From assembly GCA_020060805.1 (NCBI GenBank), contig JAGUZM010000005.1:1-24452 (forward strand): 24,452 nucleotides of DNA, written 5' to 3'. The stretch comes from Deltaproteobacteria bacterium (GTDB lineage Bacteria; Desulfobacterota; DSM-4660; Desulfatiglandales; HGW-15). The stretch's first letter is position 1, and each line of letters starts with the position of its first letter. The position numbers were made by a program, and so were the translations under genes. Of this stretch, positions 4,044 through 23,027 are shown one piece after another. The notes under the pieces were generated by a model that did not search any database, was not told the DNA's origin, and saw only the letters and a program-made list of their open reading frames with translations.

Positions 4044-4079
4044 TCTCCGCTCTCCGACTGTGGACTGCAGATTATGGGT

Positions 4080-5384: not shown

Positions 5385-5404
5385 TGTCTTCCTCCTGCCA
5401 ATTG

Positions 5405-5725: not shown

Positions 5726-5728
5726 CTC

Positions 5729-7238: not shown

Positions 7239-7434
7239 GATAACCATTAAGCTATCCCGTCTGCATCATTTGCCGCCGATGGAAAACGAAGCGAGCGCGA
7301 TTCAAAAAGAGCAGGGGCAAGCGCAGCCACGTTTTCCTGATTTTTTGACAGGAGAGCTTGAATAGAGACATGCGTTCTATGAAGCCGTTCATTGTTTCTC
7401 TTGACACTAAATGCATTGATGGTATCCTCGATTG

Positions 7435-7457
7435 TGTCCAGCAAGTGGACATGTCCA
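7435..7457. promoter_or_regulatory. Composite palindromic operator / putative activator-binding site (site A)
   Basis: The plus strand reads TGTCCA-GCAAG-TGGACATGTCCA; the reverse complement is TGGACATGTCCA-CTTGC-TGGACA. This is a 12-bp perfect palindrome plus a third half-site. The site is 197 bp upstream of the sigma-54 promoter and about 20-30 nt upstream of the activator start codon. The same architecture recurs at 12137-12159 and 22944-22966. Confidence 0.5.
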
Positions 7458-7475
7458 AGCACAACTTTTCCGAGG

Positions 7476-8912
7476 ATGATGATGATGTACACCACTGAAA
7501 GAGACCATCTCACAATAATGAAAGAGGCACTCGGCGCCTATGGGTTTTCTCGGCTGATATCCCTTGCGCTTCGTTTCTTTGTACGAAACGCGTACGAGAG
7601 CCTGGTCATTACGGACAAGGAGGGGCGGATCCGCTTCATGGACCGAGGTTCCGAGAAACTTTTCGGGCTGGGCAAGGGTGAGGCATCGGGGCTCGAAATC
7701 GAGGCTCTTCTCCCGGATACCGCACTGCCCAAGGTAATCGAGACGGGTTATCCATCCATCGGGCGAGTCCTTAACGTGAAGGGAGTGAAGAAGATCGGTT
7801 CTTCCTATCCCCTTATCAAGGACGGGGAAGTCATAGGCGCCATAGGTCGCGTGCTTTTTCACTCTCTCGAGGAGGTGGAGCGCATCAACGATAAGATGAA
7901 GATGCTCAGGAGAGAAGTACGGACTTTGCGTCAAAGGTCGCAGAGTGAGTACAGTGCAGCCTACACCTTCCAGAATATTTTGGGAAAGAGTCCCGGAATC
8001 AAGAACTGTATTGCGATGTCCAAGAAGATTGCCATCGTCCAATCCGACGTGCTGATTTCAGGCGAAAGCGGGACAGGGAAAGAGCTCTTTGCGCAAGCTA
8101 TCCACAATTTCAGCGGATCCGACAGGCCTTTTGTGCGTGTCAACTGTCCGGCTATTCCTTTTGAGCTCGCTGAATCAGAACTCTTCGGATACGAGAAGGG
8201 GGCTTTTTCGGGTGCCGACCGGGAGGGCAGGAAAGGTAAATTCGAGGCCGCCGAAAATGGGACCGTATTCCTGGATGAAATCAATTCGCTCCCCCTTTCC
8301 ATTCAAGGAAAACTTCTCCGTGTCATTCAGGAGCGAGAAGTGGAAAAGGTAGGAAGCACGAGAACGAAGAAGCTCGATATCAGGATTATTGCAGCTACCA
8401 ACACTGACTTGAAGAAGGCCGTAAGCGCCGGATCTTTCCGGGAAGACCTGTACTATCGAATTGCAAGAACAAGTATCCACATTCCTCCCCTGAGAGAACG
8501 AAAGGAGGATATCGCTATTTACGCAGAGCACTTCCTGGTTTCGATAAATAGGCGGTTTGGAACACATTTCAATAAAATCTCGGATGACGCCCTTGCTTGC
8601 CTGAAACAATACTCTTGGCCGGGAAACATTCGAGCTCTCATCAACGTCCTTGAGCAAGCATGCCTAAGAGAATGGGAAGGGGACGAGATTCCGTTGTCGG
8701 CGCTTCCAGATGATCTGACATCGGACTACCGGAGGGACGAACCGGTTCGAGGCAATCGTCTCAGAACCACTCTTGAAAAACAGGAAATGGAGTTAATTAT
8801 TCAGACTCTTAATCGGGTGAAGGGGAATAAGAGACAAGCGGCAGTTCTGCTCGGAATACCGAGATCGAGTCTCTATAACAAGTTAAATTTCTACGGCAAG
8901 CTAAAAGATTAG
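7476..8912 (+). CDS. Sigma-54-dependent transcriptional activator (PAS-like sensor, AAA+, Fis-type HTH), paralog 1
   Basis: Walker A GESGTGKELFAQAIH, the sigma-54 contact loop ELFGYEKGAFSGA, Walker B GTVFLDEI, and a C-terminal HTH (GNKRQAAVLLGIPRSSLYNKL). The start is uncertain. The track ORF begins at 7392 but would then contain the operator. Four consecutive ATGs at 7476-7487 follow GAGG, and alignment with paralog 2 (MAIIKEALGSY vs LTIMKEALGAY) supports a start in this run. Confidence 0.9.
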   Translation: MMMMYTTERDHLTIMKEALGAYGFSRLISLALRFFVRNAYESLVITDKEGRIRFMDRGSEKLFGLGKGEASGLEIEALLPDTALPKVIETGYPSIGRVLNVKGVKKIGSSYPLIKDGEVIGAIGRVLFHSLEEVERINDKMKMLRREVRTLRQRSQSEYSAAYTFQNILGKSPGIKNCIAMSKKIAIVQSDVLISGESGTGKELFAQAIHNFSGSDRPFVRVNCPAIPFELAESELFGYEKGAFSGADREGRKGKFEAAENGTVFLDEINSLPLSIQGKLLRVIQEREVEKVGSTRTKKLDIRIIAATNTDLKKAVSAGSFREDLYYRIARTSIHIPPLRERKEDIAIYAEHFLVSINRRFGTHFNKISDDALACLKQYSWPGNIRALINVLEQACLREWEGDEIPLSALPDDLTSDYRRDEPVRGNRLRTTLEKQEMELIIQTLNRVKGNKRQAAVLLGIPRSSLYNKLNFYGKLKD

Positions 8913-8924
8913 CCTGTTTTCGCA

Positions 8925-10841
8925 TCATGTCGTGGCCGCGGCGCTGCACCTTTTTACATATTCCGCGACTACTAGTGGAATCGCTATAGCGATTCCGACC
9001 GCGTCGAAAATCAAACCAGGGATGATCATGACACCCCCGCCGCAGAAAAAGATCATCCGCTTGGGCCAGGAGAGCGAGCGGAACAGATAGCCTTCAAGGC
9101 CCATTGATATCACGTAAATGCCAGCAATCGCGCTCACGGCTCCCTCCACAATGTCGAAAAGCGACCCCTGGAGCAGCAGGGCGGGGCGATATGCGAATAT
9201 GAATGGGATAATATATGCAGCAATCCCGAGTTTCATCGATTGCAGTGCGGTCTTGAACATACTTGCTCCGGCAAGCGAGGCTGCAGCATAAGCCGCCAGG
9301 CAGACCGGGGGCGTCAGAAAGGAGAGGATTGCGTAATAAAAAACGAAGAAATGCGCTATTAATCCAGGAATTCCGGAGTCGACCAGGGCGGGGGCGATGA
9401 GGACCACCATCAGCAGGTATGCGGCGGTGACTGTCATCCCCATCCCCAGGATGCTTGCACCGATGGCCGCAAACAGCAGGAGCAGAAAAACATTTCCTCC
9501 TGCCAAAGATACCAACATGTCGGAAAATATGAAACCGAGTCCGGTGATGCTCAAGACGCCGATGATAATGCCTGCCCCGGCACTCGTGACCCCTACTTCC
9601 AAAAGCCCCCTTCCAGTATCACGAAGGACCGAAAGAGCTTTGGTCCATGTCACGCCTTGATGTCTCGCAAAGCAGAGGCCCAATGCGAGAGACCCCCCGG
9701 CCGTAATGAGACCGGAGCTCTCCGGCTCCCAGCCAAAGAAGAAAAGCAAGCCGATCAGCACTAGGAATGGCAGAACAAATGTCCAGCCTTTCAACACGAC
9801 CCTCCAGAAATTTGGGATCTGCTCAGATGGCATGCCTTTGAGATCGAGCTTAGCCGCCCTTAAGTCAACCTGAATGAACACCGCAAGGTAGTAGAGAGTC
9901 GCTGGGATAATCGCCGCGATGGCGATCTCCGAGTAGGGGATGTTAAGAAATGTGGCCATCAGGAAGGCCGCCGCCCCCATGATGGGAGGCATGATCTGAC
10001 CGCCGGTAGAAGCGACAGCCTCGACGGCGCCGGCGAAATAGGGGGGGTAGCCTGATCTTTTCATCAGTGGGATCGTAAACACCCCCGTCGTCACCACATT
10101 GGCTACGGCGCTCCCCGAAATGGAGCCAAACAGGCTCGATGCGATGACCGCCACCTTGGCCGGACCACCCCTGTATCTCCCCATCAAAGAAAAGGCGATG
10201 TCTATGAAAACCTTCCCGCCGCCTATAACCGAAAGCACTTGTCCAAACAACACGAAAACCAGCACTATGGTCGCCGATACATTCAAGGGCACACCGAATA
10301 TCCCTTGTTCGTCCAGATAGAGAAAGGTGACCAAAGAGGTGAAGGGTATACTTCTCATCCCCAAGATGCCCGGGAAATGAGACGAAAAGAGCGCGTAGAA
10401 TAGGAAAGGCAACATGATAATCACAAAGGGCAAACCGACGACTCTTCTGGATGACTCAAGGACCAGTAGCACTGCAATGAGGCCGAGTAAGACACGTTCC
10501 TGTGTAATTAGACCCGACTCAACAGCAAGGATCTCGTAATTCACGCTGACATAGAGTCCCGACATGATCGCGAGAATGGCAAAACAAAAATCATACCACG
10601 GCAGCCGATTTAATGCCTTGCCTTTCCTAATGGGGAATAGAAGAAACGAAGCTGCTATCACTAAACCGAAAACTACCCCCAAATATTGCTGAGTAAACAA
10701 GGGAATTTTCACGAATTCGCTAAGATGCAGCATGAAGACGATGCCGCTTATAGGGATGAGGGCGAGAACGAAGTCGGTCAAACCCCCAGCCCATCCTTTG
10801 AGTCTCCGAAAAGAAGTCTCCACGCCCTTCCTTTCACTCAT
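8925..10841 (-). CDS. TAXI-type TRAP transporter fused permease (DctQ-DctM fusion, 4TM/12TM type), copy 1
   Basis: 638-aa polytopic membrane protein immediately downstream (51-nt gap) of a TAXI-like binding protein gene. Paralogous to 16360-18249, for example FGSISGSAVANVVTTGVFTIPLMKRSGY vs FGMMTGSQTANVAAVGTLTIPLMIRSGY. GAGGTGGAG RBS. Confidence 0.9.
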   Translation of the reverse strand: MSERKGVETSFRRLKGWAGGLTDFVLALIPISGIVFMLHLSEFVKIPLFTQQYLGVVFGLVIAASFLLFPIRKGKALNRLPWYDFCFAILAIMSGLYVSVNYEILAVESGLITQERVLLGLIAVLLVLESSRRVVGLPFVIIMLPFLFYALFSSHFPGILGMRSIPFTSLVTFLYLDEQGIFGVPLNVSATIVLVFVLFGQVLSVIGGGKVFIDIAFSLMGRYRGGPAKVAVIASSLFGSISGSAVANVVTTGVFTIPLMKRSGYPPYFAGAVEAVASTGGQIMPPIMGAAAFLMATFLNIPYSEIAIAAIIPATLYYLAVFIQVDLRAAKLDLKGMPSEQIPNFWRVVLKGWTFVLPFLVLIGLLFFFGWEPESSGLITAGGSLALGLCFARHQGVTWTKALSVLRDTGRGLLEVGVTSAGAGIIIGVLSITGLGFIFSDMLVSLAGGNVFLLLLFAAIGASILGMGMTVTAAYLLMVVLIAPALVDSGIPGLIAHFFVFYYAILSFLTPPVCLAAYAAASLAGASMFKTALQSMKLGIAAYIIPFIFAYRPALLLQGSLFDIVEGAVSAIAGIYVISMGLEGYLFRSLSWPKRMIFFCGGGVMIIPGLIFDAVGIAIAIPLVVAEYVKRCSAAATT

Positions 10842-10892
10842 ATCTCCACCTCTTTGCGTCGGTGACTACGTAAGCGATAACCTTATTGTTTG

Positions 10893-11921
10893 CTATTTCT
10901 GTTCCTTCTTCAGGAGTTCCTCCTGAATGTTTGCCATTTCTTTGGTCCAGACGCCCTTTTCTTTGAAAAGCCTCACCGCCCCGGGGTGATAGGGAACAAT
11001 GAACTGGTTGGTAAGAAAGATCTCGGGCTTCCACGCTTTCAATCCAGCATGGATTTTCCCAAGCTCCTGATGATGATCCCAGAGGATCTTCATCACGTCG
11101 TACACCTTATCGTCAGGGTAGTTTGACCTGCAAATCAGGTAGATATCGTACCCCCACAAATAGCCTTCCTTTTCAATTCCGGTGTTCCCCGGACCAGGGG
11201 CGACTTTGACAGGATAGCCCGGGAAGAATTGTCGGGTACGGGCCAAAGCCTCCTGGGAAGTATCGAATTGAAGAAGGCGAGCCCCCTTCTTCGCATGGAG
11301 TTCATCGATGATAGGCATGCCCAGCGCTGCCGCCCCGCTCGCATCAGCCCGTCCGTCGATTACCACCGCCACGGCCTCCTGGACCGAATTGACCGGCACA
11401 GGTGTCACTTCGCTCCACTTGACTCCACCATTAGCCAGATACGCCTCTATTTGCAGTTGAAGAGATGGTACAGGCATGTTGCCGCCGACCCGCTTTCCCT
11501 TAAGGTCAGAATAGGAGAAGATACCGGAATCTTTCGCCACGACCAGACATCCAAGGTTATTCACGCTTATGGCAACCAAACGGACCGGAAAACCTTTACC
11601 CCCCGACAGCTTGGAGTAGACCGATTCGCCCAGCCAACTCTTCTCTGCATCCCACATATTGAGAACGCCCAGATCAATGCTGTCCCGTTCCATGAACGGG
11701 AGCCATGCCACAGGCCCTTTCATAGGTTTTACTGTGGGGACAACATCAGAGTGATCGGAAACTACTTTTGCAACCGCAGTTCCTACTACGTTGAAAAAGG
11801 AACCGACCGGATGTGTCCCGATGCTCATGAATTCTTTTGCGGGTGCCGACTCTGCTCCAAGTACCCAAGCAAGACAAAGAAGGGTAGCCATTATGATCAA
11901 GAACTTCACATTCCTTTTCAT
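10893..11921 (-). CDS. TAXI-family TRAP solute-binding protein, copy 1
   Basis: Signal peptide (MKRNVKFLIIMATLLCLAWVLGAESAPA) and a periplasmic-binding-protein-sized 342-aa ORF. The N-terminal IGTHPVGSFFNVVGTAVAKVV resembles the TAXI G-x-G-G-x-Y-x-x-G region. Sits directly upstream of a fused TRAP permease. AAGGAG RBS. Confidence 0.8.
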   Translation of the reverse strand: MKRNVKFLIIMATLLCLAWVLGAESAPAKEFMSIGTHPVGSFFNVVGTAVAKVVSDHSDVVPTVKPMKGPVAWLPFMERDSIDLGVLNMWDAEKSWLGESVYSKLSGGKGFPVRLVAISVNNLGCLVVAKDSGIFSYSDLKGKRVGGNMPVPSLQLQIEAYLANGGVKWSEVTPVPVNSVQEAVAVVIDGRADASGAAALGMPIIDELHAKKGARLLQFDTSQEALARTRQFFPGYPVKVAPGPGNTGIEKEGYLWGYDIYLICRSNYPDDKVYDVMKILWDHHQELGKIHAGLKAWKPEIFLTNQFIVPYHPGAVRLFKEKGVWTKEMANIQEELLKKEQK

Positions 11922-11999
11922 GGTCGTGCTCCTTTCCAGTTTAAGGTGAAAACCTATCTCCCCGGGATTCGGTCTTCCTCAGATCTTCGCTTGAACAAA

Positions 12000-12014
12000 G
12001 CAAAATACTTGCCA
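12000..12014 (-). promoter_or_regulatory. Sigma-54 (-24/-12) promoter-like element for the TAXI operon (copy 1)
   Basis: The minus strand reads TGGCAA-GTATT-TTGC with correct GG/GC spacing, about 80 nt upstream of the ATG at 11921. Confidence 0.6.
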
Positions 12015-12136
12015 CTCCGCGGCTTATCAAAGGCATTCGTCACGAATAGGCAGGGAAACTGTTTAAAAACAGCCATGAGATAGAAAATGCCCTCTTCAAA
12101 GCTTGCATTTCTGTATCTGAAGCGGACGCATGCCTT

Positions 12137-12159
12137 TGGACATGTCCATGCATTGGACA
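12137..12159. promoter_or_regulatory. Composite palindromic operator / putative activator-binding site (site B)
   Basis: TGGACATGTCCA-TGCAT-TGGACA. The 12-mer is identical to site A, with the same 5-nt spacer length and third half-site. It lies about 125-145 bp upstream of the 12000-12014 promoter. Confidence 0.5.
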
Positions 12160-12336
12160 CCTGTTTTCGAATCGGTCTCGCAATAAGCCCACCCGGCAGA
12201 ACCGAACTTCACCACGACTTCGTTGGTATTGGTCCTTTGTCCAGTTGCTTTTCAGAATCGTCTCAACGCTTCGTCAATTGCTAGTCCGCGCGCCCTCTTG
12301 CCTTAGAACAGACATATTCTGAAGAGATCGTCGGCT

Positions 12337-12633
12337 CAACTTTGACGAATTCGTAAAAAGTCGAAAATGCGCTTTTTCAGTCATCCCGGTGAAAACCGGG
12401 ATCCAGTGATTTCAAGAACTTCCGGATGCCGGATCAAGTCCGGCATGACGGCCTCAGGACTTTTTACGAGATTGTCAACTTTGATGCTCCCGTAAAAAGT
12501 CCGGCGCGTCCATTCCGTTCATGGTTCGATACCTCACCACGAACGGAATATCATACACTTACGGCTGTTTAGTCCGTTCCCCCTGAGGTATCGAAGGGTG
12601 AACGGGACTTTTTACGGGGCCTCAACTTTGATG
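12337..12633. repeat. Two tandem MITE-like / REP-like non-coding repeat elements
   Basis: The direct repeat CAACTTTGA(C/T)G occurs at 12337-12347, 12476-12486 and 12623-12633. Each interval is bounded by inverted repeats: CGTAAAAAGTC (12352-12362, 12491-12501) and GACTTTTTACG (12458-12468, 12606-12616). Internal hairpins: CCCGGT-GAAA-ACCGGG (12385-12400); ATGCCGGA-TCAAG-TCCGGCAT (12426-12446); ATTCCGTTC/GAACGGAAT (12512-12520 / 12541-12549); and a 22-nt imperfect inverted repeat 12515-12536 / 12584-12605 (19 of 22 positions pair). Confidence 0.6.
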
Positions 12634-12671
12634 TTTTGCGCTTTTTTATATGAAAATTACTCCATGTCTTT

Positions 12672-12686
12672 AGGCATGGTCTTTGC
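12672..12686 (+). promoter_or_regulatory. Possible sigma-54 (-24/-12) promoter for ubiX
   Basis: The plus strand reads AGGCAT-GGTCT-TTGC with correct GG-N10-GC spacing, 197 nt upstream of the ubiX ATG. This is weaker than the other three elements and has a long leader. Confidence 0.4.
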
Positions 12687-12882
12687 TGAACGGTTACATG
12701 TGGTGGAGCGGAGATGTGGATATCATCTCACTCTCACGCCGCTCATGATAGAATCGCAATTGATCAGCGAATGGCAAAGAAACTCGACCTACATGGTTGG
12801 ATACATTGCTTAAGCACGAGCACTTTAGACGCGGTCATAAAGCTATTGACGCTACACCAAAACGGTTTCCAAGGAGAATATA

Positions 12883-13470
12883 ATGGGAAAACGGATCGTG
12901 ATCGGATTATCCGGAGCAAGCGGGATGATATATGGCATACAGTTATTAAAGGTACTTAAGAACATTGAAATTGAAACGCACCTCATTATGTCAGAATCCG
13001 GCATGAGGAACCTTCAAATCGAGACTTCCTTTACTCCTTCTGAGGTTGCTGCTATGGCTGATTTCACATATGACAACAGAGATGTAGGCGCAGCTCTTGC
13101 GAGTGGATCATTTTTGACAGAAGGAATGGTGATTGCTCCATGCACCATAAAGAGTTTGTCTGGGATCGCCAATTCTTATTGTGAAAATCTGCTAGTAAGA
13201 GCTGCAGACGTCACACTTAAAGAAAAGAGAAAACTGGTTCTGCTGGTAAGAGAAACCCCTTTGCACATAGGACATCTGAGGTTAATGACTAGGGCCGCAG
13301 AAATGGGTGCGCATATATTGCCCCCTGTGCCCGCTTTCTATCACCGGCCAAAAACGATTGATGATTTGATCAATCAGACTGTGGGAAAGGTACTTGATTT
13401 TCTGGAGATTAGGCACGACCTATTTACTAGATGGGGGGAAGAGTCTCAAAGTGGGAAATCAAGACAATAA
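12883..13470 (+). CDS. ubiX: UbiX-type flavin prenyltransferase (prFMN synthase)
   Basis: 195 aa. Characteristic N-terminus MGKRIVIGLSGASGMIYGIQLLKVL, plus VIAPCTIKSLSGIANSY and LLVRETPLHIGHLRLM. AGGAGA RBS. Confidence 0.9.
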   Translation: MGKRIVIGLSGASGMIYGIQLLKVLKNIEIETHLIMSESGMRNLQIETSFTPSEVAAMADFTYDNRDVGAALASGSFLTEGMVIAPCTIKSLSGIANSYCENLLVRAADVTLKEKRKLVLLVRETPLHIGHLRLMTRAAEMGAHILPPVPAFYHRPKTIDDLINQTVGKVLDFLEIRHDLFTRWGEESQSGKSRQ

Positions 13471-13533
13471 TCTTGTAAAAGGAAATCAGGAGCAGCTTCG
13501 ACGATGATGGGGTTTTGAGTCTTAAAAAAATGT

Positions 13534-14523
13534 CTATAGATGTAATAACCTTTTCGCGTTTCCCTCGAAAATCATTTTCTTGTGATCCTCGGGGATGGTA
13601 ATCGTATTTATTGCATCGATCGTTAGCCGCAGGTACCTGGCTCCACACTCGCAGTCATATGGCATATCTGTTCCAAATAGCATATGCTCAGATCCAAAGA
13701 AGGCATATCCGCACATAAGACTGTTTGGTGCTCCATAGAGGGCGGTGTCGCCATAAAACCTGCGAAAATACTCTATTGGAGGTTTGTTGAGATGTTTTTT
13801 GAATTTCGCTCCGAGGCAAACGTCTGCAAAATCCTGACCGCCTGCCATACGATCCGCAAAGTAGGGTAGCATGCCCCCACAGTGATGGGTTATGATCTTC
13901 AAGTTGGGATATTTCTCCATGATCCCGCTAAAAACAAGCCTTGTCATTGCCGAAGTTGTTTCATAGGGCCAGCCAAACATGCTGAAGATCCAGTACTTGG
14001 AATGATCTTCACTCCTGTAATCGGAGAAGCTTCGATCCCTTTGAGGGTGAATCCAGATTGGAAGGTCGTATTGTGACATTTTGTCGTAAAGCGGGAGAAA
14101 CTCTTTTTGATCTATCGGTTTGTCGTTTGTGGGCGTATATATCTGCACACCCTTAAAGTTTAGTTGAGTGATAGCTCTATCGAGTTCCTTTAAAGCGGCA
14201 TCGATATCGTTCATAGGAAGGCAGGCTACTGCGGCTACAAAGCGCCGAGGATATTTGGCTACCAGCTCTGCCATTTCATCATTTGCGAGTTTTGCGAGCT
14301 CAACTGCTTCCTTATCTCCGACGACGGATTCGATGGGAGGAGAAGCCAGGGTCAAAACCTGTCTGAGCCCGTCGAACTCATCAACAATGCCAAACCATCT
14401 GTCCAAATCCCACAGGGTGGGGACCGCGTCATCCACCCCGCGCAGGTAATAGTCACTTCGCGCTTTTCGATCGAGAGCATTCTTATAGTTGATGGGTAGA
14501 ATGTGGGCGTAGATATCTATCAT
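13534..14523 (-). CDS. Amidohydrolase_2 (ACMSD / non-oxidative aromatic decarboxylase-hydratase) family protein
   Basis: The N-terminal MIDIYAHILP aligns with the ACMSD-type IDIHSHILP metal motif. It also has WIHPQ, ITHHCGG and FGTDMPYD motifs. The start is ambiguous. The track ORF uses a TTG at 14589 with no RBS; the ATG at 14523 gives a family-typical 329 aa, but its GGAG is 12-13 nt away. Confidence 0.8.
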   Translation of the reverse strand: MIDIYAHILPINYKNALDRKARSDYYLRGVDDAVPTLWDLDRWFGIVDEFDGLRQVLTLASPPIESVVGDKEAVELAKLANDEMAELVAKYPRRFVAAVACLPMNDIDAALKELDRAITQLNFKGVQIYTPTNDKPIDQKEFLPLYDKMSQYDLPIWIHPQRDRSFSDYRSEDHSKYWIFSMFGWPYETTSAMTRLVFSGIMEKYPNLKIITHHCGGMLPYFADRMAGGQDFADVCLGAKFKKHLNKPPIEYFRRFYGDTALYGAPNSLMCGYAFFGSEHMLFGTDMPYDCECGARYLRLTIDAINTITIPEDHKKMIFEGNAKRLLHL

Positions 14524-14625
14524 AAATTTCGGAATCTCCGCTTGCTTTTTCAATCCGAGGCTTAATTCAGCTGCATTTCTTCGAGGCAATCATGAGCACG
14601 GTGCGGCTCCGTTCTACATGTATAA

Positions 14626-15759
14626 TCAATCCATTCTTTCCTGGATACATCCGAACGGCTCACGTTTGATCAATGCTTCAAAACACTTGTTGCAGGAGAC
14701 GCACTTCGCTTTGTGCGCGGGATCTCTTTGCCATTCGGTGATCAGTTGTGGTTCTCTTATAAGAGGACGTGAAAGCGAAATGAGATCAGCGTCTCCCGTT
14801 TCAATGATTTCTTCCATGAGACTGAAAGACCTCAAACCGCCTACTATCATAATAGGCACATTCACTTTGGGCCGAACTTCTTTACACCATGGCCTGAAAT
14901 ATGCCTCCCGATCACGCGCGGTGATCTGTGTGCGGAACTCTGATTTTGAATACCCTTTGCCCCGTAGTCCAAGGCTGATCTCCAATGCCGTATATCCGGA
15001 TTCCGCAAGGAGTCGGCACGCCTGCCGACCTTCTTCAAAGCTGAGTCCTCCCGGCCGACCGTCTTGTACCCCGATTTTGATCATCACGGGGTAGTCCCCG
15101 CCTGTCGATGCCACAATTTGACGATAGATCTCGAGATGTATCCGGAGGCGGTTTTCGAGACTCCCTCCCCACGAATCGGTTCGCCGATTTGTCAATGGTG
15201 AAAGAAATTGGCTCAAGAGATAACCGTGGGCGGCATGGATCTGCACAGCATCAAAGCCGCTCGCCCTGGCCCTTACCGCGGCTTCGCCGAAAGCGTGAAC
15301 TACCGTAGAGATGTGATCTTCAGTCATGACCTGGTAGGAGTTTGGGTCGAGCAAATCATCTTCAATTCGTGAAGGCGAAAGCGCCGACTGATCTTTAGAC
15401 TTTATGAACTTCACCCTCTCAATGCCGGCATGAAATAGTTGAGCCGCTATTTTCGCTCCGAAATTATGAACCTTGGATGTCAATTCCCTGAAACTTGGGA
15501 TGCAGTCATCCTTAGCCAGGGAGTTCTGAAAACCGGATATCCTTCCTGAAGGGTGCACATAGGTAATCCCTGTGATAATCAGGCCCACCCCGCCGCTTGC
15601 CAGATCGGAGCAAATCTTTAATTGCTCCGCTGAGACACAGCCGTTTCTCTCGGCCGAGCCATCGTATGTGGCAGACCTTACAAAACGGTTTCGCAAAACC
15701 AAACCACCGATCGGGAATGGCTGAAAAATCTTGTTCAATGGAGATCCCCCCTTTTTCAT
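14626..15759 (-). CDS. Old Yellow Enzyme / 2,4-dienoyl-CoA reductase-family FMN oxidoreductase, short form ending in a 4Fe-4S Cys motif
   Basis: OYE TIM-barrel motifs (LRNRFVRSAT, VQIHAAHGYLLSQFLSPLTNRRTDSWGGSLENR). The C-terminus is C-VS-C-NK-C-x11-C (CVSCNKCFEALIKREPFGC), and the protein stops 7 residues later. There is no C-terminal FAD/NAD(P)H domain. Confidence 0.85.
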   Translation of the reverse strand: MKKGGSPLNKIFQPFPIGGLVLRNRFVRSATYDGSAERNGCVSAEQLKICSDLASGGVGLIITGITYVHPSGRISGFQNSLAKDDCIPSFRELTSKVHNFGAKIAAQLFHAGIERVKFIKSKDQSALSPSRIEDDLLDPNSYQVMTEDHISTVVHAFGEAAVRARASGFDAVQIHAAHGYLLSQFLSPLTNRRTDSWGGSLENRLRIHLEIYRQIVASTGGDYPVMIKIGVQDGRPGGLSFEEGRQACRLLAESGYTALEISLGLRGKGYSKSEFRTQITARDREAYFRPWCKEVRPKVNVPIMIVGGLRSFSLMEEIIETGDADLISLSRPLIREPQLITEWQRDPAHKAKCVSCNKCFEALIKREPFGCIQERMD

Positions 15760-15820
15760 TCCATTGTGAGAGACTGTACTGTAGAGAGACTTCTTTGTCG
15801 CTGTTCACGCCATTGCCTGG

Positions 15821-16309
15821 TCACGGTCCCGCCTTGATTCTGAACTCCTCGTCCATCTCGACCCAGCCCGGACCGAATCTCTGGTCATAAAAAGCGGCAA
15901 AACGATCGTACCATCGGGCCCATGTGCTTTTCCCCGCCTGCAGCGCCTCAAGGACGTCATTCAGGTAAGCGGCAATATTCTCGAGTTTTTCCTTTGGTAT
16001 GAAAAAGGCGGCACCCTGCTTGAATGACTTCACCGTGTCCTGAACGGTTAAAGAGTGGGCAGTGAGCATTACGGGGATCACCCTCCTGCGCTTTGCAACC
16101 TCAAGAAGCGAATACCCGTCGACTCCCATGATGTCGAGCACGGCGATGTCAAAGTACTCGTTCTCGAGAAGTTTCTTCGCCTTTTCAAATGTCTCGGCCT
16201 TCACCACGTCGCACATCGATAGGAGGGACTCCAGTGTGGCCAGAATATCGGGTTCATCATCGACCACGAGAACTCTTTTGTATTTCAACACGTCCTTTCT
16301 CCTGTTCAC
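15821..16309 (-). CDS. Stand-alone response-regulator receiver (REC) protein with Trp-rich C-terminal tail (paralog 2)
   Basis: VVDDEPD, AVLDIMG, MLTAH and FFIPKEK (conserved Lys present). The tail is STWARWYDR...FGPGWVEMDEEF. GTG start preceded by GAGGA. Alignable along its full length with the 1883-2374 product. Confidence 0.85.
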   Translation of the reverse strand: MNRRKDVLKYKRVLVVDDEPDILATLESLLSMCDVVKAETFEKAKKLLENEYFDIAVLDIMGVDGYSLLEVAKRRRVIPVMLTAHSLTVQDTVKSFKQGAAFFIPKEKLENIAAYLNDVLEALQAGKSTWARWYDRFAAFYDQRFGPGWVEMDEEFRIKAGP

Positions 16310-16359
16310 TTATCCTCATTTTTGTCTGCCATTTGGACTTCATCCCTGCCGTGAGCCCC

Positions 16360-18249
16360 CTAGCTCTTGCTTTCTACCGGATACGAGCTGCCCCTAGACA
16401 TCCGTGAACGGATATTCCGCCATAACAGAATGGCTGCTATGGTCAACAGCCCGAGCATGTTCAATACTATGTTATGAGGGATAAGGCAAATGCTTGCGCA
16501 TAGGACGAGAAGCCTTTCAGGCAGCGTCAGCTTGGAAGTGGCGAAACCCAGGAACGACATGGATATTCCACCGATGGCGACGAACGCAGTGAAAATGCGG
16601 TAAATTACATAAACGACAGATCCCTTCAGCATGATCTCCGGCGAATAGACGAAGAGAAAGGGCACGATGAAAGTCGGCGCAGAAATCAGGAATGCCAGAT
16701 TGGTAGTTTTCAGAGGATCTGTCCTGGCAATACCCGCTGCCGCAAAGGAGCACGGTGCTGAAGGGGGGGTGATGTTGCCGAGAACCCCGAAGTGGAAAAT
16801 GAACAAGTGCGCTGCCATGGGATGTATCCCACTCTGAACGAGTGCAGGCGCGGCAAGGATTGCCAGGATGAGATAAGCCGTCACGGGGGGCAGAGGCAGC
16901 CCGATAATTACCGAGGCGACCATGGTCAGGAGGAGCAGGACGATTTTGTTCCCTCCTGCTACATAAAGCAGTATCTCTGTAAAGCGGAGTCCCAGCCCTG
17001 TGAGATTGATCACTCCCTCGATGATTCCGGCCGCTGCGCACGACATAATCACGATCAATGCCGTTTTCGGGCCGTTTTCAAGGGCCAGGATCAACTTTGA
17101 GAAGGACATCCTTGTCGCCTTTCGGAGTAGGCTGATGGCGAGCAGTGCAATGATTGCCCAAAACCCGGCCTTCTTGGTGCTCACATTCTCGACAATCAGC
17201 AGGTAGAAGATGACCAGGAGCGGAAAAAAGAGATGACCATACTGGCTCAGCAGTGAACGGATCTTCGGCAGTTCAGATTTGGGCGCCTTTACGAGCCCGA
17301 GTTTCTTGCCCTGGATCTGTATGAACGTGAATACGGTCATGTAGAAAAGGAGGCCGGGTACCAGTGCGGCGCGCATGACGTCCAGGTAGCTTCCGCCGAT
17401 GATCTCAGGGATGATGAAGGCCGCTGCCCCCATCACAGGGGGAACCAACATTCCCCCTGTTGAAGAAAGCGCCTCAATGGCTGCGGCCATTATGGGCTTG
17501 TATCCTGAGCGGATCATAAGGGGAATGGTCAAGGTGCCTACAGCCGCAACGTTTGCCGTCTGGCTTCCAGTCATCATGCCGAAAAGGCAGCTCCCCAGGA
17601 CGGCTGCTTTAGCGGCCCCGCCCCTGAACCTCCCAAAAATGCCGTAGCCAATGTTCGTAAAGGCGTGAGTACCACCCGTCTGTTCGAGGAAGGCACCAAA
17701 AATGAGGAAAATGATGATCACGGTCGCGGACACGCTCAAAGCAACCCCCAATATTCCCTCGGTGCTGAGGAACATGTGCGAAACCACCCTCTCGAACGAA
17801 TACCCGCTGTGAGCGAACATGGAAGGCAAGTACTTTCCGAACGCTACATAGGCAAGGCTCAACAAAACCAAAACGCACATGGTGAGCCCCATGATGCGAC
17901 GCGTCGCCTCTGTGACGAGCACGATCGCCGTTGTTCCCACAATGCAATCCAAAATGTTCGGCGAGCCCTCCCTTGATGCGATGTTCTCATACTCCAGCAG
18001 AACATAAAGGGAGATGAATGCACTCAAAAAAACCAGAACGTAGTCTATCGCCAAGGCGGTACCAGTGTGTCTGCTACGGAATGTTTTCTGCAGGGGCAAG
18101 AGAAGGAATACCAGGATGAGCCCGAACCCGAGATGGATAGATCTCTGCTGCATTGCAGGAAGCTGCTGTATCCCAGCAGTGTAGATCTGGAATAAAGACA
18201 TCGCGATTGCAATGATCCCTATGACCCTTTTTGAAGTAATCCATCTCAT
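16360..18249 (-). CDS. TAXI-type TRAP transporter fused permease, copy 2
   Basis: 629-aa polytopic membrane protein paralogous to 8925-10841. GGAG RBS at 6 nt. Confidence 0.9.
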   Translation of the reverse strand: MRWITSKRVIGIIAIAMSLFQIYTAGIQQLPAMQQRSIHLGFGLILVFLLLPLQKTFRSRHTGTALAIDYVLVFLSAFISLYVLLEYENIASREGSPNILDCIVGTTAIVLVTEATRRIMGLTMCVLVLLSLAYVAFGKYLPSMFAHSGYSFERVVSHMFLSTEGILGVALSVSATVIIIFLIFGAFLEQTGGTHAFTNIGYGIFGRFRGGAAKAAVLGSCLFGMMTGSQTANVAAVGTLTIPLMIRSGYKPIMAAAIEALSSTGGMLVPPVMGAAAFIIPEIIGGSYLDVMRAALVPGLLFYMTVFTFIQIQGKKLGLVKAPKSELPKIRSLLSQYGHLFFPLLVIFYLLIVENVSTKKAGFWAIIALLAISLLRKATRMSFSKLILALENGPKTALIVIMSCAAAGIIEGVINLTGLGLRFTEILLYVAGGNKIVLLLLTMVASVIIGLPLPPVTAYLILAILAAPALVQSGIHPMAAHLFIFHFGVLGNITPPSAPCSFAAAGIARTDPLKTTNLAFLISAPTFIVPFLFVYSPEIMLKGSVVYVIYRIFTAFVAIGGISMSFLGFATSKLTLPERLLVLCASICLIPHNIVLNMLGLLTIAAILLWRNIRSRMSRGSSYPVESKS

Positions 18250-18485
18250 GCTTTACTCCAATTCCGGCAGGATTTTGTCATTACTGCGGCAACTGAGCGT
18301 CATGGTTGTCGTTTTGCTGACCGGAGCCTGTCTCATCAAGACCGGCAAATGGAACTGCATGCCTCCACATTTTCAGCGGGACAGTTAGTCCAAGCCGGGT
18401 TGGCCGACAGTCCTATTCGGTCGCCTCTTGAGAAGGGCATTCGATAATGTGCATCAGGCGACTCTCTGCAAAAAGGTCATGGAGG

Positions 18486-19451
18486 CTACTTGAAAATACC
18501 GGCTTCTTTGAAGTACTTTTCAGCCCCTTTGTGAAATGGGAAGGCGATGGTGCGTTTTACGCTTTGAGGGTTCATCTCGTTCGCAACCGGGTGGATCTCA
18601 ATCAGCTCTTTTCTGTTTTCAAAAAGCGCTTTGGTCATTTTGTAAACGAGATCCTCCTTCACCCCTTCGTGGGTTTCGAGCGGCACGCCGAATACGAGAA
18701 TTGGCGTAGGCTGATCGACGCCGCTGTAAGATCCCGGTTTCAGAGTGTCATGATAGAGATATGGGTTTTCCGGCAGGATCTTCTTCAGCACTTCCTCGTT
18801 GGCTGGGATCACACGGATTTCCTTTCGAATGCTGAGTTCCTTCATGGCCGGAATCGGGTATGCGCCGGAGATAAACCCAGCATCGATGCTCTCGTCCTGC
18901 AAGCCCTCGACCACCTCCTTGTAGCCTAGCCACAGTTGCTTGTACATGTCTTTGGTGACTCCGTGGGCCGTGATCAAATCCAGAGCTAACTGTGATGTTC
19001 CGCTACCGGCCGCACCAAGGGCCACCCTCTTGCCCTTCAGATCGGCAATGGTCTTTATGGAGGAATTCTTGAGCACTACCAGGTTCATCCCCGCGCCGTA
19101 TAGAAAGGTGATGGCCCGGAGTCCATCGTAAGCCTTTTCAAATGGCGGCTTTCCTGCATAAGCCAAATAGAGAAGCTTCGAGTCACTTATCCCAAAGGCG
19201 GCCTGCCCCTTTGATTGTTTCTCGTCGAGATACTTGATCGTGGCGGAAGACCCGCCTGTCCCTTCCACCATCATCTGCACTTCGGGTACGTGTTTGTTCA
19301 GGACCTTGGCAATCGCTCCTCCAAGAAAGTAGGCTGTTCCTCCAGAGCCCGGCGTGTAAATGGGAATGACCTCTTTTGCAATGGAAACTGGAGTTTGACA
19401 AAGAACCGCCATCCCAAAAACTGCCATAAGGACCATTTCAAACTTTTTCAT
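18486..19451 (-). CDS. TAXI-family TRAP solute-binding protein, copy 2
   Basis: Canonical TAXI N-terminal region IYTPGSGGTAYFLGGAIAKVLNKHVPEVQMMVEGTGGSSATIKYL. Signal peptide MKKFEMVLMAVFGMAVLCQTPVSIA. The ATG at 19451 follows AGGGGGG; the track ORF (to 19493) would overlap the ligase gene. Confidence 0.85.
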   Translation of the reverse strand: MKKFEMVLMAVFGMAVLCQTPVSIAKEVIPIYTPGSGGTAYFLGGAIAKVLNKHVPEVQMMVEGTGGSSATIKYLDEKQSKGQAAFGISDSKLLYLAYAGKPPFEKAYDGLRAITFLYGAGMNLVVLKNSSIKTIADLKGKRVALGAAGSGTSQLALDLITAHGVTKDMYKQLWLGYKEVVEGLQDESIDAGFISGAYPIPAMKELSIRKEIRVIPANEEVLKKILPENPYLYHDTLKPGSYSGVDQPTPILVFGVPLETHEGVKEDLVYKMTKALFENRKELIEIHPVANEMNPQSVKRTIAFPFHKGAEKYFKEAGIFK

Positions 19452-19485
19452 AAAGCCCCCCTTTCTCTTAACGGGTTCGTTGCAA

Positions 19486-21057
19486 TCAAACATACTTGCG
19501 CCTCATCTCCTTCTTCTCCAGTTTGCCGGTCGGATTCCTCAGTACTTCATCGAAGATGATGCGCCTCGGTCTCTTGTATCTCGCAATTTTTCTTTCAAAA
19601 AAGGCGGTCAACTCTTTCTTCGTTTCACTTGAATCAGGGATATTCGACTTGAGTTTAATTACCGCCGTGACCATCTCACCTAGCCTGTCATCGGGGAGCC
19701 CTATTACAGCCACATCGTGAACTTTGGGATGAGTTTGTATCAGCTCTTCGACTTCAGTGGGGTACACGTTCTCGCCCCCACAGATAATCACGTCCTTTTT
19801 CCTATCGACGATCCAATAAAACCCCTCCGAATCCCTTCTCGCCAAGTCGCCGGTATATAGCCAGCCGTCCCTTATCGTTCTTGCGGTCAGTTCCGGATTT
19901 TTGTAATACTCTTTCATGACGCCGTTCCCTCGGACAACGATTTCTCCGACATCTCCCCGCCGTGTATCGTTGCCGGAATCATCCACCAGTTTCACCTCCC
20001 AGTTGAATCCCGGCTTGCCGATCGAGCCCACTTTGTGCTCGTTCTCGATCCCGAGGTGAAGACATTGAGGCCCAGTTCCCTCAGTGAGCCCATAGTTCTC
20101 ATCAAAGATCATGTTAGGGAATTCCTTTTTCCACCTCGTGATCAGACTCGGCGGAACCGGTTGCGCGCCGAGCAAAAGGAGTCGCCATTCACTCAAATCG
20201 TAATCTGATTTCTTCAGTGTCCCCGCTTCCAGTTCCCCCAGTATGTCCTGGATCCATGGAACGAGGAGCATGCAAACAGATCCTCGCTCCTCCGATAGAA
20301 CCCGAAAAATCGCTTCCGGAGTAATTTTGTCTCCCTGTATTATGGCCGATTCACCCATGATGAGACTGGAAAGCCAGTGAATAAAATCCCCGGTGTGGTA
20401 GAGAGGCTTCAGAATCACGAATATGTCGCCGCTCCTTCGAAGCTGATGTACCACCTCGATGATCGCAGCGTGCTCCATGTTGTTGTGGCTGAGCAGAATG
20501 GGTTTCGGCTTCCCTGTAGTTCCCGATGTGAAATAGAGACCGCAGGGGTCACTAGGCTCAAGGCGTGTAAAAAATGGTTCCGGGGAGGATCCAGCCATAA
20601 TCGCGGGGAGACATTCCATGCCCCTTGCGGCACTCGGCCCGTTGACGAATATGACGAAATCACGTTTCTTCTCGAGTTCCGCCTCGATTACTCTGGGGGC
20701 GAATTTCTCGTCGAGGATCATTGCCGCCGGTTCGGCTACGTCCATGCAGTGGCGGAAATCATCCGATGTGAACCGAAAGTTGAGAGGAACGACAACTGCG
20801 CCTGTACGAATGATCCCAAAGTACGCCGCCACCCAGGAGATGGAATTCATCATCCAATGAATCACCTTATCTCCCTTCCTTACGCCTCTTCCTGTGAGGG
20901 AGTTGGCGATCCTGTTGACCATCTCATTCAACTCTCTCCAGGTGACCTCAACTCGCAGGTTTTTACTCGGCAGCCGTTCAACGAGGGCGATCTTGTCAGA
21001 ATGCATCCTCGCGTTCCTTGCCAGCATTTCTGAGATATCCATGACGCCTATTACCAT
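19486..21057 (-). CDS. AMP-forming acyl/aryl-CoA ligase (classical ANL adenylate-forming superfamily)
   Basis: AMP-binding signature YFTSGTTGKPKPILLSH, then GYGLTE-like NYGLTEGTG, and WLYTGDLARRDSEGFYWIVDRKKDVIICGGENVYPTEVE. The start could be 21057 or 21042 (MDISEMLARNA); neither has an ideal RBS. Confidence 0.85.
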   Translation of the reverse strand: MVIGVMDISEMLARNARMHSDKIALVERLPSKNLRVEVTWRELNEMVNRIANSLTGRGVRKGDKVIHWMMNSISWVAAYFGIIRTGAVVVPLNFRFTSDDFRHCMDVAEPAAMILDEKFAPRVIEAELEKKRDFVIFVNGPSAARGMECLPAIMAGSSPEPFFTRLEPSDPCGLYFTSGTTGKPKPILLSHNNMEHAAIIEVVHQLRRSGDIFVILKPLYHTGDFIHWLSSLIMGESAIIQGDKITPEAIFRVLSEERGSVCMLLVPWIQDILGELEAGTLKKSDYDLSEWRLLLLGAQPVPPSLITRWKKEFPNMIFDENYGLTEGTGPQCLHLGIENEHKVGSIGKPGFNWEVKLVDDSGNDTRRGDVGEIVVRGNGVMKEYYKNPELTARTIRDGWLYTGDLARRDSEGFYWIVDRKKDVIICGGENVYPTEVEELIQTHPKVHDVAVIGLPDDRLGEMVTAVIKLKSNIPDSSETKKELTAFFERKIARYKRPRRIIFDEVLRNPTGKLEKKEMRRKYV

Positions 21058-21121
21058 CCTTCCGGCACTAAGGGTTGAGGAAGAAGGCCAGAACTATGAC
21101 GTTTTACCGGAACATACTAAA

Positions 21122-21162
21122 GGCCGCCAACCTTAACTAATCACGGCTGAAGGAAGGCGGCC
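21122..21162 (-). other. Intercistronic stem-loop between the UbiD paralog 2 gene and the CoA ligase gene
   Basis: GGCCGCC (21122-21128) and GGCGGCC (21156-21162) form a perfect 7-bp GC-rich stem, with inner CCTT/AAGG pairing. On the transcribed strand only TTT follows, so this is not a canonical terminator. Confidence 0.3.
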
Positions 21163-21173
21163 GGGAGCAAGAA

Positions 21174-22691
21174 CTACCTTCCCGTTTTGGCGAGCGACCG
21201 AGCATATTCGGTCTGCATGCCACGAAAATCGGCAAGCTGCTTCTCGGAGAACCATTTTTTCAGGTCAACTTTGTCCACAGGATAATGGGGTCGAGTGAAG
21301 TAGTGCGCGGTCTTGAAGGGCTTTGTTGCGTCGAATGCCATCCCGCCTTCCCATCCGCCAAGGCCACTCTGCCTGACTTCTTTTGGCTGGGCTGCTATGC
21401 CGCGCCCCCCGCGTGGAAGCTTAATAATATCTTTGTCGGGGTCGACACGGCTCTCCAGAGCCCACATCACGTCGTCGGCATTGTAGATGTCTACATCCTC
21501 GTCAACGGCAATCGCCATCCTGATACCAGGCGCATCCGCAAGCGCCGAAAAGAGAATGTTCCTCTGAAATCCTTCCTCCTGCGATCGCTCCTTGCGCACC
21601 TGGAAAATGACTCCACTCCCCCACTTGAAGTAATCGGGGATGTTGACATCCACACATATGCCCGGGGCAATCCTTTCTGCCATCTCGAAAAACGTTGCCT
21701 CCCTGAGCAGATCGAAACACGCGTATTCCAGCCCTGCCGCAAGGGGGGTGTAGAAGATGGGACGTTCCTTCCTCATGGTGACAGCGGTGACTTGGAGTTT
21801 ACGCACCTTCCATGTGGTGCCCATATATCCTACCCATTCCGGGAAAAAATTAGTCTCCCCCTGGCGCTGCACTCCCAGTTTTTCTGCTTCTTCGCTTTCC
21901 CACACATTCTGGGAGGTCGGCTCTAGATAACCTTCCAGCACTATCTCGGCATCCGCGATGGCATACGCATCAACGGTCCTCGCTTTCACCAGTTTGACCG
22001 GCGCCCCCTGAAATCCACCGGCGATTCCCAGTTCATCGCTTCCGTGAGGCACGATCGTTCTCACGTTCCAGGTGCCCGCCACGATGCCGACTGCAGGGCT
22101 GGGGTTCATATTCACGGTTATTGGAATCCTCTCGTCACGATGGGTCTTGAAGGCCATCATCCCAATGTGAGTGATTTGGGCAGTTGATATCGAAGCCCAG
22201 TCTTTACCCCTGAAATGAATCCGATTGAATGAGATGTTCGTATCGCCTTTTCTGTAGACATCGCACAGGAGCTGATTTCCGCACCCGATGATCCTGCCGG
22301 CATCGAATTCCGTGTGTTTGATGATCGGAAGCATTGTTGGTACATCGATGTCCTTGGTGATTACCACTTCCTGGCAAGGCGCGTCTTTCACTATCTGGGG
22401 AGGTATCGGCTCTCTCAACGCCTCCACAAACTTGAATTTAAGCTTGTTCGGGTCGCTCACTCCGTAGAGGTCGGCAATCGGTTCTCGCCTTCCGAAAATA
22501 TTGCCGAGGTCGCGAAAACCGGGGTATCCCTTTATTTTGTCGAAAAGGAGTATAGGTCCCTTCTCCAACGCCTTTTGAATCCCGGCGATTTCGTAGATCG
22601 GATCTACCTCTTCCTTCACATGGACCACCTGGCCTTTCTTATCCAGGTAAGCCAACGCCCCTCTTATGGACGTCACATCTCTTTTTTCCAT
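21174..22691 (-). CDS. UbiD-family (de)carboxylase, divergent paralog 2
   Basis: UbiD-like N-terminus (IRGALAYLDKKGQVVHVKEEVDPIYEIAGI) and overall length. The canonical GPFGE loop is replaced by ETNFFPEWVGYMG. The start is set at Met17 of the track ORF (ATG 22691), which follows AGGAGG at 5 nt. Confidence 0.85.
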   Translation of the reverse strand: MEKRDVTSIRGALAYLDKKGQVVHVKEEVDPIYEIAGIQKALEKGPILLFDKIKGYPGFRDLGNIFGRREPIADLYGVSDPNKLKFKFVEALREPIPPQIVKDAPCQEVVITKDIDVPTMLPIIKHTEFDAGRIIGCGNQLLCDVYRKGDTNISFNRIHFRGKDWASISTAQITHIGMMAFKTHRDERIPITVNMNPSPAVGIVAGTWNVRTIVPHGSDELGIAGGFQGAPVKLVKARTVDAYAIADAEIVLEGYLEPTSQNVWESEEAEKLGVQRQGETNFFPEWVGYMGTTWKVRKLQVTAVTMRKERPIFYTPLAAGLEYACFDLLREATFFEMAERIAPGICVDVNIPDYFKWGSGVIFQVRKERSQEEGFQRNILFSALADAPGIRMAIAVDEDVDIYNADDVMWALESRVDPDKDIIKLPRGGRGIAAQPKEVRQSGLGGWEGGMAFDATKPFKTAHYFTRPHYPVDKVDLKKWFSEKQLADFRGMQTEYARSLAKTGR

Positions 22692-22775
22692 TCTTCCCTC
22701 CTGATGATCGCAATTTCTTTGTTGGCTCAGTTCACTCAAAGTTGTCTACGCTCGATTTCTTATAACTGCCTATTA

Positions 22776-22790
22776 GCAAAGAACGTGCCT
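22776..22790 (-). promoter_or_regulatory. Sigma-54 (-24/-12) promoter of the module B operon
   Basis: The minus strand reads AGGCAC-GTTCT-TTGC with correct GG/GC spacing, about 85 nt upstream of the ATG at 22691. A sigma-54 activator gene is divergent from it. Confidence 0.65.
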
Positions 22791-22943
22791 CAATCTACTT
22801 GCCTGATTTTACACTATAAAATAAATGTACAACCAAAAAAAGTCTGCATATCCTCTCAAAGATGTCCATTTTGCAGACATCGTTCTAGATAATATCTTCT
22901 GATTCTATGAACTTACTCAAATATTGAGATCATGACCTAAAAA

Positions 22944-22966
22944 GAGACATGTCTTTTTGCTGGACA
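22944..22966. promoter_or_regulatory. Composite operator / putative activator-binding site (site C)
   Basis: GAGACATGTCTT-TTTGC-TGGACA matches the reverse complement of site A at 18 of 23 positions. Shared parts are the GACATGTC core, the TTGC spacer end and the TGGACA half-site. A partial inverted copy, TGTCCA-TTTTGCA-GACAT, lies at 22863-22880. Confidence 0.45.
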
Positions 22967-23027
22967 ACCTCATTCATCTGAACCATATTGGGGCAAGAAG
23001 ATTAGATTTTTGCTTTTGGAGCCGCGC

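Follow-up and report, generated by a model that had tools for sequence, protein, structure and literature searches.

Which regulator reads a sequence element that recurs in three regulatory regions of a single contig? The question is raised by a 24,452-nucleotide stretch of DNA from a Deltaproteobacteria bacterium (GCA_020060805.1, contig JAGUZM010000005.1), hereafter the window, which is contig C560 of a 5.03-Mb draft genome (627 contigs, 55.7% G+C). The window encodes two sigma-54-dependent enhancer-binding proteins (EBPs), EBP1 and EBP2, together with catabolic modules. A first-pass annotation described three sites, A, B and C, in which GACATGTC is accompanied by a spaced half-site TGGACA, and proposed that they form an operator shared by both activators. 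Comparison of the window with related genomes and metagenomes indicates that the motif is the upstream activating sequence (UAS), or enhancer, of an uncharacterised orthogroup of sigma-54 EBPs of which EBP1 and EBP2 are paralogous members, and we place the probability of this reading at about 0.85. The shared operator at the three regulatory regions is strongly supported by comparative genomics, that is, by the tracking of the motif with the orthogroup, by its absence from paralogous EBP loci, by promoter geometry and by co-variation with the helix-turn-helix (HTH) domain of the EBPs.

The three sites were found letter for letter as described (Table 1), and the motif is inverted between sites A and C, as the annotation stated. 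Sites A and B are identical in 18/18 specified bases and differ in spacer and orientation. The sequence GACATGTC occurs three times in the window, solely at sites A, B and C; the expectation in the shuffled window is 0.37 copies, and 0/100 shuffles reached three. A scan of the 5.03-Mb genome for further copies found the composite GACATGTC-N7-TGGACA three times, every one in the window, and TGGACATGTCCA twice, both inside the window. On its own, GACATGTC is present in 47 copies genome-wide and is not enriched. The other genomic copies lie mostly within long open frames, and only the window's three of the 47 have a sigma-54 promoter within 400 bp or an N5 half-site. Given the genomic density of GACATGTC, one copy per regulatory intergenic region in all three has a joint chance expectation of about 7e-8. 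The inverted repeat TGTCCA-N5-TGGACA occurs three times in the genome, two of them in the window. The sole other perfect copy (C195:2759) is located within a 353-codon open frame without a sigma-54 promoter and was therefore taken as chance. Near-perfect cores on contigs C77, C536, C521 and C268 were also rejected; they lie in long open frames and lack a sigma-54 promoter. A degenerate 12-mer at 7365-7376, listed in the annotation as a further copy, is present but matches at 6/12 positions, and even 12-mer matches with three mismatches occur at chance level. Therefore, it was rejected as a site.

The positions of the sites relative to promoters are those of enhancers. Measured against a UAS distance of about 70-300 bp from a -24/-12 promoter (GG-N10-GC), sites A, B and C lie 197, 123 and 154 bp from the -24 elements of promoters P1, P2 and P3, which bears out the earlier values of 197, about 125 and 154 bp. 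An additional site, C2, lies 73 bp from the -24 element of P3. It had been recorded as a partial inverted copy at 22863-22880; the element exists, but is better described as a full 17-mer matching at 10/12 positions. Site C itself is a four-half-site array composed of two abutting degenerate 17-mers. In the orthologous module of genome G003, in which the counterpart of UbiD2 has 75% identity, C2 aligns with the promoter-proximal site, and site C aligns in equal orientation with the EBP-proximal site (cat)ACA·TGTCCG-N5-TTGACA (the dot marks the junction of abutting half-sites). Thus, the two-site layout of module 2 is conserved. The IHF consensus WATCAANNNNTTR has zero matches in the window.

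The motif follows the EBP through related genomes. A search of 209 genomes of the same order with the EBP1 sensor domain delineated an orthogroup with members in G140, G096 (two copies, G096a and G096b), G020, G176, G003, G030 and G025, at 35-67% identity. The composite score upstream of 8/8 of these EBPs was 13-18 out of 18, mostly 25-60 bp before the EBP start, compared with 10-13 for 22 paralogue controls. The orthologous loci carry homologous catabolic genes, and at each locus the site is separated by 68-290 bp from a divergent -24/-12 promoter; which catabolic genes are the neighbours varies among loci. De novo motif discovery, which the annotation had put forward as a check, recovered ACATGTCC when run on k-mers with the window excluded. 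This k-mer and ATGTCCAA were each present in 7/8 orthologue upstream regions and in 0/22 controls, whereas in shuffled upstream regions a single 8-mer was common to no more than 3-5 of them. Beyond the motif itself, the 8-mer discovery brought up no non-AT-rich k-mer common to the upstream regions.

The association extends to metagenomes and to other families of the phylum. The metagenome scan employed a three-sequence sensor alignment, since the eight-sequence version was too divergent, and identified 42 loci, 34 of which were non-redundant and had sufficient upstream sequence. The core was matched at 10/12 positions or better in 27 of the 34, between -21 and -79 relative to the estimated start of the EBP and mostly at -36 to -44, and nearly all of these 27 loci have a divergent sigma-54 promoter. 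In the phylum-level sample, the motif is carried by G329 (TGACCT-N5-TGGACA·TGTCCA-N5-TTGACA and a third 17-mer), by G444 and, weakly, by G498, and it was not found in phylum-level relatives at 31% identity or less. Under one uniform criterion applied to genomes and metagenomes with the window excluded, the core (T)GGACA·TGTCC(A) is present within 400 bp upstream in 36/45 orthogroup loci and in 0/30 paralogue controls. The EBP gene is the sole gene that invariably stands next to the motif across genomes and metagenomes.

EBP1 and EBP2 are paralogues with 48% identity. Their HTH regions had been called similar, and the recognition helices are near-identical (RSSLYNK and RSLLYNK). The EBPs accompanied by the motif share the HTH signature GNK(R/K)xAA..G(I/M)PRSx(L/F)Y(N/K)K, and paralogues without the motif mostly carry a GN(R/K)xxAARILGIHRTGLYQK helix. 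The best-scoring curated family for both proteins is NCBIfam NF041552, which represents PrdR, the proline reductase activator of Clostridioides. The alignment spans profile positions 135-577, comprising the PAS-like sensor, AAA+ and HTH domains, and leaves the first 134 positions unmatched. However, EBP1 (428.1 bits) and EBP2 (403.9 bits) score far below the family cutoff of 795, the phylum is different, and the neighbouring genes encode UbiD, CoA ligases, TTT/TRAP transporters, an OYE and an amidohydrolase instead of prd products. Judged by the profile comparison, EBP1 and EBP2 are PrdR-like in architecture but not members of the PrdR family. The motif is well supported as a real, genome-specific and widely conserved predicted enhancer of this PrdR-like orthogroup, which would control UbiD/CoA-ligase/transporter modules.

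The annotation had described the element as three half-sites with an N5 spacer. The N5 spacing is real and the commonest flank, but the invariant unit is a 12-bp palindrome, and several types of array exist. In the aligned sites, the invariant element is (T/a)GGACA·TGTCC(A/g), and column information is concentrated in this 12-mer. The spacing profile of 37 sites is sharply peaked. An inverted half-site stands exactly 5 bp from the core on the left in 12 sites and on the right in 8, and 17/37 sites have it on one side or both. In 10/37 sites, TGGACA is present in direct orientation at gap 4, which corresponds to tandem cores with a 10-bp period. Smaller peaks lie on the left at gap 15 (8 sites) and on the right at gaps 10 (6 sites) and 13 (2 sites), and the remaining gaps have about 0-1 sites. 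Tandem cores with a 16-bp period are present in two loci, G020 and L178. The N5 half-site may stand on one side of the core or the other, with site A unlike B and C in this respect; it flanks the core twice in G176, G329 and site C and is missing from G096a and G096b. L184, L157 and the tandem-core clade likewise carry the variant half-site TGACC(A/T). A TGT-N11-ACA element is part of each of the sites A, B, C and C2, and the dyad test resolved a 12-bp palindrome and 17-bp inverted repeats, with three to four half-sites per array and the second site at region C. In the simplest unifying description, the arrays can be read as abutting 17-bp TGTCCA-N5-TGGACA dyads with the core as their junction. 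An RNA-hairpin role of the leader palindrome was set aside; by estimate, the loop-less 12-mer would give at best a 4-bp stem.

Alternatively, the palindrome GGACA·TGTCC may itself be the primary binding unit, with the N5 half-sites and extra cores as auxiliary anchors, in an EBP enhancer of non-NtrC geometry. The palindrome would then take either one dimer or two HTH domains of neighbouring dimers on opposite faces of the helix. We consider this less likely than not, although it has several points in its favour: no element but the core is shared by nearly all loci, the sites of G096a and G096b consist of the core alone, cores are repeated in tandem with a 10-bp period in one clade and a 16-bp period in two loci, and column information is centred on the 12-mer. 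However, the half-site centres of the 12-mer are about 6 bp apart and lie on nearly opposite faces of the helix, which is atypical for Fis-type HTH dimers. Dyads of 16-18 bp are the norm for such dimers, as in NtrC, NifA and FhlA. The prevalence of the gap-5 inverted half-site, the commonest flank (17/37 sites), and the complete four-half-site arrays in G176, G329 and site C also argue against this alternative, and the closest family is predicted to use TGT-N10-12-ACA sites (PMC6615313).

It is far less probable that another linked transcription factor, such as a repressor or a global regulator, binds the motif and that the EBPs use a different UAS. Binding of the EBPs to the motif is deduced from sequence comparison, and the location of the site in the EBP leader is typical of repressors. 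However, the EBP gene is the only invariably adjacent gene, whereas the catabolic neighbours vary, and the presence of the motif co-varies with the HTH sequence of the EBP. Site B is positioned at UAS distance from a sigma-54 promoter even though no EBP gene adjoins it, k-mer discovery yielded no alternative shared non-AT-rich k-mer, and, according to Pfam annotation, the window encodes no DNA-binding protein other than EBP1 and EBP2. Local duplication of regulatory DNA, or chance, without a selected function would fit the agreement of sites A and B in 18/18 specified bases and the paralogy of the modules, but is excluded for practical purposes because spacers, flanks and orientation differ, the joint expectation is as low as given above, and the motif persists where the sensor domains share as little as 35% identity and in further families of the phylum.

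Several observations weigh against the motif as the enhancer of this orthogroup. A non-orthologous EBP of the same genome, encoded on contig C237, has a look-alike site TGTCCT-N5-GGGACA, and therefore the outer half-sites alone are not specific. The core-only sites of G096a and G096b and the tandem cores with the 10-bp period lack outer TGT/ACA elements and misfit a simple 17-mer model, and the close spacing of the half-site centres makes the 12-bp core ill-suited to one HTH dimer. Nine of the 45 orthogroup loci have no good core. The EBP of locus L123 has a helix like those of the motif-bearing L109 and L110 but no upstream site, so the correlation between HTH and motif is not absolute. Furthermore, the locus counts and the nominal P of 3e-13 overstate the significance because related loci do not count as independent observations.

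By analogy with NtrC, NifA and XylR, a mechanism of activation from these enhancers can be proposed. EBP dimers would bind half-sites of the form TG(T/A)CC(A/T) through their C-terminal Fis-type HTH domains. The half-sites would be paired as 17-bp inverted repeats TGTCCA-N5-TGGACA of the TGT-N11-ACA class, and abutting repeats would form the 12-bp junction TGGACA·TGTCCA, the best-conserved element. When the PAS-like N-terminal domain perceives an effector signal, the dimers would assemble into an AAA+ hexamer on the array, and the operons for UbiD decarboxylases, CoA ligases and TTT-TRAP transporters would be switched on. We speculate about an unusual composite device, in which two dimers on opposite helix faces read the zero-spacer 12-bp junction in place of the classical 17-bp dyad, the array doubles as a negative-feedback operator in the leader, and mixed EBP1/EBP2 oligomers, like those of RedR1 and RedR2, integrate signals of the two aromatic-acid modules, but find it rather improbable.

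Site A ends 18-27 nt before the run of EBP1 ATG codons and site C 61 nt before the EBP2 ATG, in agreement with their description as lying just upstream of the activator starts. Four in-frame ATG codons follow one another at 7476-7487, straight after GAGG at 7472-7475, and the true start of EBP1 is therefore ambiguous within 9 nt. Sigma-70-like pairs had been reported at both sites, and both exist: the one at site A matches at 10/12 positions and has an extended TG, whereas the one at site C matches at 9/12, the chance level for the region. The predicted transcription start of EBP1 from this pair is approximately the first base of site A. In most loci, some 20-60 bp separate the core from the EBP start codon downstream of it, and in the seven EBP1-type loci that were read directly, including site A, G140, G096a, G096b, G020 and G176, the core ends 18-30 nt before the start codon. 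A -10-like box, often TG-extended, is present 11-31 bp upstream of the core in most loci. This would place the array in the earliest transcribed region, within approximately the first 25 bp of the activator's transcript, or in the promoter. In self-repressing divergent EBP operators, such as those of PspF at pspF-pspA, XylR at Pr/Ps and NtrC at glnAp1/glnL, the enhancer of the divergent sigma-54 promoter extends into the sigma-70 promoter or leader of the activator gene, so that one site both activates the operon and limits activator synthesis. The sites studied here resemble this type in position only, as their cores lie about 20-60 bp before the start codon, just downstream of a -10-like box. 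By this analogy, occupancy of the array could also damp the activator's own sigma-70 transcription, which we regard as possible, if somewhat short of probable. Against this stand the frequency of -10-like hexamers in AT-rich leaders, the origin of the clearest cases from one clade and the chance-level match at EBP2.

Cross-talk between the EBP1 and EBP2 modules, which the annotation had raised along with autorepression, is plausible because the recognition helices are nearly the same, GACATGTC is common to sites A, B and C, and there is a precedent for it. In Aromatoleum anaerobium, the paralogous EBPs RedR1 and RedR2 act with conserved shared UASs at three sigma-54 promoters of an anaerobic aromatic pathway (PMC10084136), an interplay of paralogous activators like that proposed here for EBP1 and EBP2. 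Unlike EBP1 and EBP2, with their 48% identity, RedR1 and RedR2 are near-identical and form hetero-oligomers; the likeness is one of arrangement. The agreement of sites A and B over 18/18 bases, set against the degenerate site C, would make EBP1 the likely main user of A and B and EBP2 that of C and C2.

The orthogroup sites resemble a known class of enhancers. PrdR and 14 other groups of Clostridiales EBPs have predicted TGT-N10-12-ACA UASs, usually multiple and 100-250 bp from the promoter, and NifA (TGT-N10-ACA) and FhlA are known users of this class (PMC6615313). The features in common are the 17-bp TGT-N11-ACA dyad, the multiple sites, their position 70-290 bp upstream of a -24/-12 promoter, the Fis-type HTH and the adjacency of the EBP gene to its target operon. 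In contrast to the class, the dyads described here abut at zero spacing, the perfect 12-bp palindrome at their junction shows stronger conservation than the outer half-sites, core-only sites or 10-bp tandem cores occur in some relatives, and the half-site is extended to TG(T/A)CC(A/T). No paper combining GACATGTC with sigma-54 was found in the literature. As a bacterial gene switch, the motif is of a known and rather ordinary kind, and the general picture of sigma-54 activation is unchanged.

For the UbiD-decarboxylase/CoA-ligase modules of uncultured anaerobes, which resemble isophthalate/phthalate-type gene clusters, the motif supplies a specific DNA site together with a defined orthogroup of regulators. 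It lends itself to regulon prediction in metagenome-assembled genomes of anaerobic degraders of aromatic acids, and could support effector-responsive reporters for aromatic acids. The natural series of arrays, from a core with an N5 half-site through abutting 17-mers to tandem cores with 10- or 16-bp periods, illustrates the variation of sigma-54 enhancers.

Table 1 Sites, promoters and genes of the window. Dots mark junctions of abutting half-sites.
Feature	Position	Strand	Description
Site A	7435-7457	minus	TGGACATGTCCA-CTTGC-TGGACA; plus-strand reading TGTCCA-GCAAG-TGGACA·TGTCCA
Site A, inverted repeat	7435-7451		17 bp
Site A, core	7446-7457		12-bp palindrome
Site B	12137-12159	plus	TGGACATGTCCA-TGCAT-TGGACA, i.e. 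TGGACA·TGTCCA-TGCAT-TGGACA
Site B, core	12137-12148		
Site B, 17-mer	12143-12159		
Site C	22944-22966	plus	GAGACATGTCTT-TTTGC-TGGACA
Site C, extended	22933-22966	plus	TGACCT-AAAAA-GAGACA·TGTCTT-TTTGC-TGGACA; weak fourth half-site TGACCT at 22933-22938
Site C2	22863-22879		17-mer TGTCCATTTTGCAGACA, i.e. TGTCCA-TTTTG-CAGACA
Sigma-54 promoter P1	7223-7238	minus	TGGCACACTCCTTGCT; perfect TGGCAC-N5-TTGCT
Sigma-54 promoter P2	11999-12014	minus	TGGCAAGTATTTTGCT
Sigma-54 promoter P3	22775-22790	minus	AGGCACGTTCTTTGCT
Weaker candidate sigma-54 promoter	12672-12687	plus	precedes ubiX
Candidate sigma-70 promoter of EBP1	7401-7428	plus	TTGACA-16-TATCCT; ends 7 bp before site A
Weak sigma-70-like pair upstream of EBP2	22961-22989	plus	TGGACA-17-CATATT
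EBP1 (P0001)	7476-8912	plus	478 aa; PAS-like sensor, sigma-54 AAA+ (Sigma54_activat), Fis-type HTH_8; recognition helix PRSSLYNK
EBP2 (P0002)	23028-24452	plus	474 aa; domains as in EBP1; recognition helix QRSLLYNK
P1 unit	44-7165	minus	UbiD1, small subunit (phenylphosphate-carboxylase-gamma-like), PaaK-like CoA ligase, FAD reductase, REC, DctQ, DctM (Pfam)
P2 unit	8925-11921	minus	NMT1_3 binding protein (TTT-type), fused DctQM-type permease (Pfam)
P3 unit	13534-22739	minus	UbiD2, AMP-ligase, binding protein, permease, REC, OYE, amidohydrolase (Pfam)
UbiX-like gene	12883-13470	plus	

Within the P1 unit, the order UbiD, small protein and PaaK-like CoA ligase at 4080-7165 resembles, by gene order, the isophthalate cluster of Syntrophorhabdus aromaticivorans. 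That isophthalate-induced cluster encodes a decarboxylase, a hypothetical protein and a phenylacetate-CoA-ligase-like enzyme, IPCL (PMC9516798); the paper does not cover regulation, the words 'regulator' and 'promoter' being absent from it and 'sigma' appearing only as a chemical supplier. A repeat-rich block with hairpin-forming units occupies 12337-12633, between site B and the candidate ubiX promoter, and stretches the distance between the two to about 510 bp.

At L079:1127-1225 (G025:C3) and at L140:9307-9477, the sequence with the sigma-54 promoter TGGCATAAAAATTGCT is repeated exactly around a run of N. This run is probably a scaffolding gap or a masked stretch, and promoter distances there are therefore uncertain. 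A scan of genome contigs with full-length EBP1 was of no help for footprinting, as the relatives it gave reached no more than 42% identity and the AAA+ domain drove the matches. The top full-length relatives, the best among species-representative genomes outside the scan's own lineage, were L001-L004 from Alkalicoccus/Alteribacillus of the Bacillota, with 41-42% identity over residues 32-473. This similarity suggests a cross-phylum distribution of EBPs with the sensor type of EBP1, which fits the PrdR-like architecture.

The look-alike site on contig C237 (4593-4609; L097:2667) reads TGTCCT-GAATC-GGGACA and is located 174 bp after the stop codon of a 741-aa EBP with the HTH sequence ISRNTLYQK; a sigma-54-like promoter follows about 150 bp further on. 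Another such site, TGTCCT-GATTT-AGGACA, is present at C371:1748-1764, with a sigma-54-like promoter at a distance of 237 bp. Look-alike sites of the form TGTCC-N7-GGACA thus seem to serve other EBPs of the genome. Genome-wide, TGTC-N9-GACA occurs 84 times, compared with 33 times for the N8 spacing, 60 for N10 and 47 for GACA-N9-TGTC. A split of these occurrences into coding and intergenic was dropped, as the stop-to-stop open reading frame mask was too greedy and covered site A itself. The excess may reflect the use of TGT-N11-ACA-type sites by many of the genome's EBPs (at least 30 AAA+ matches).

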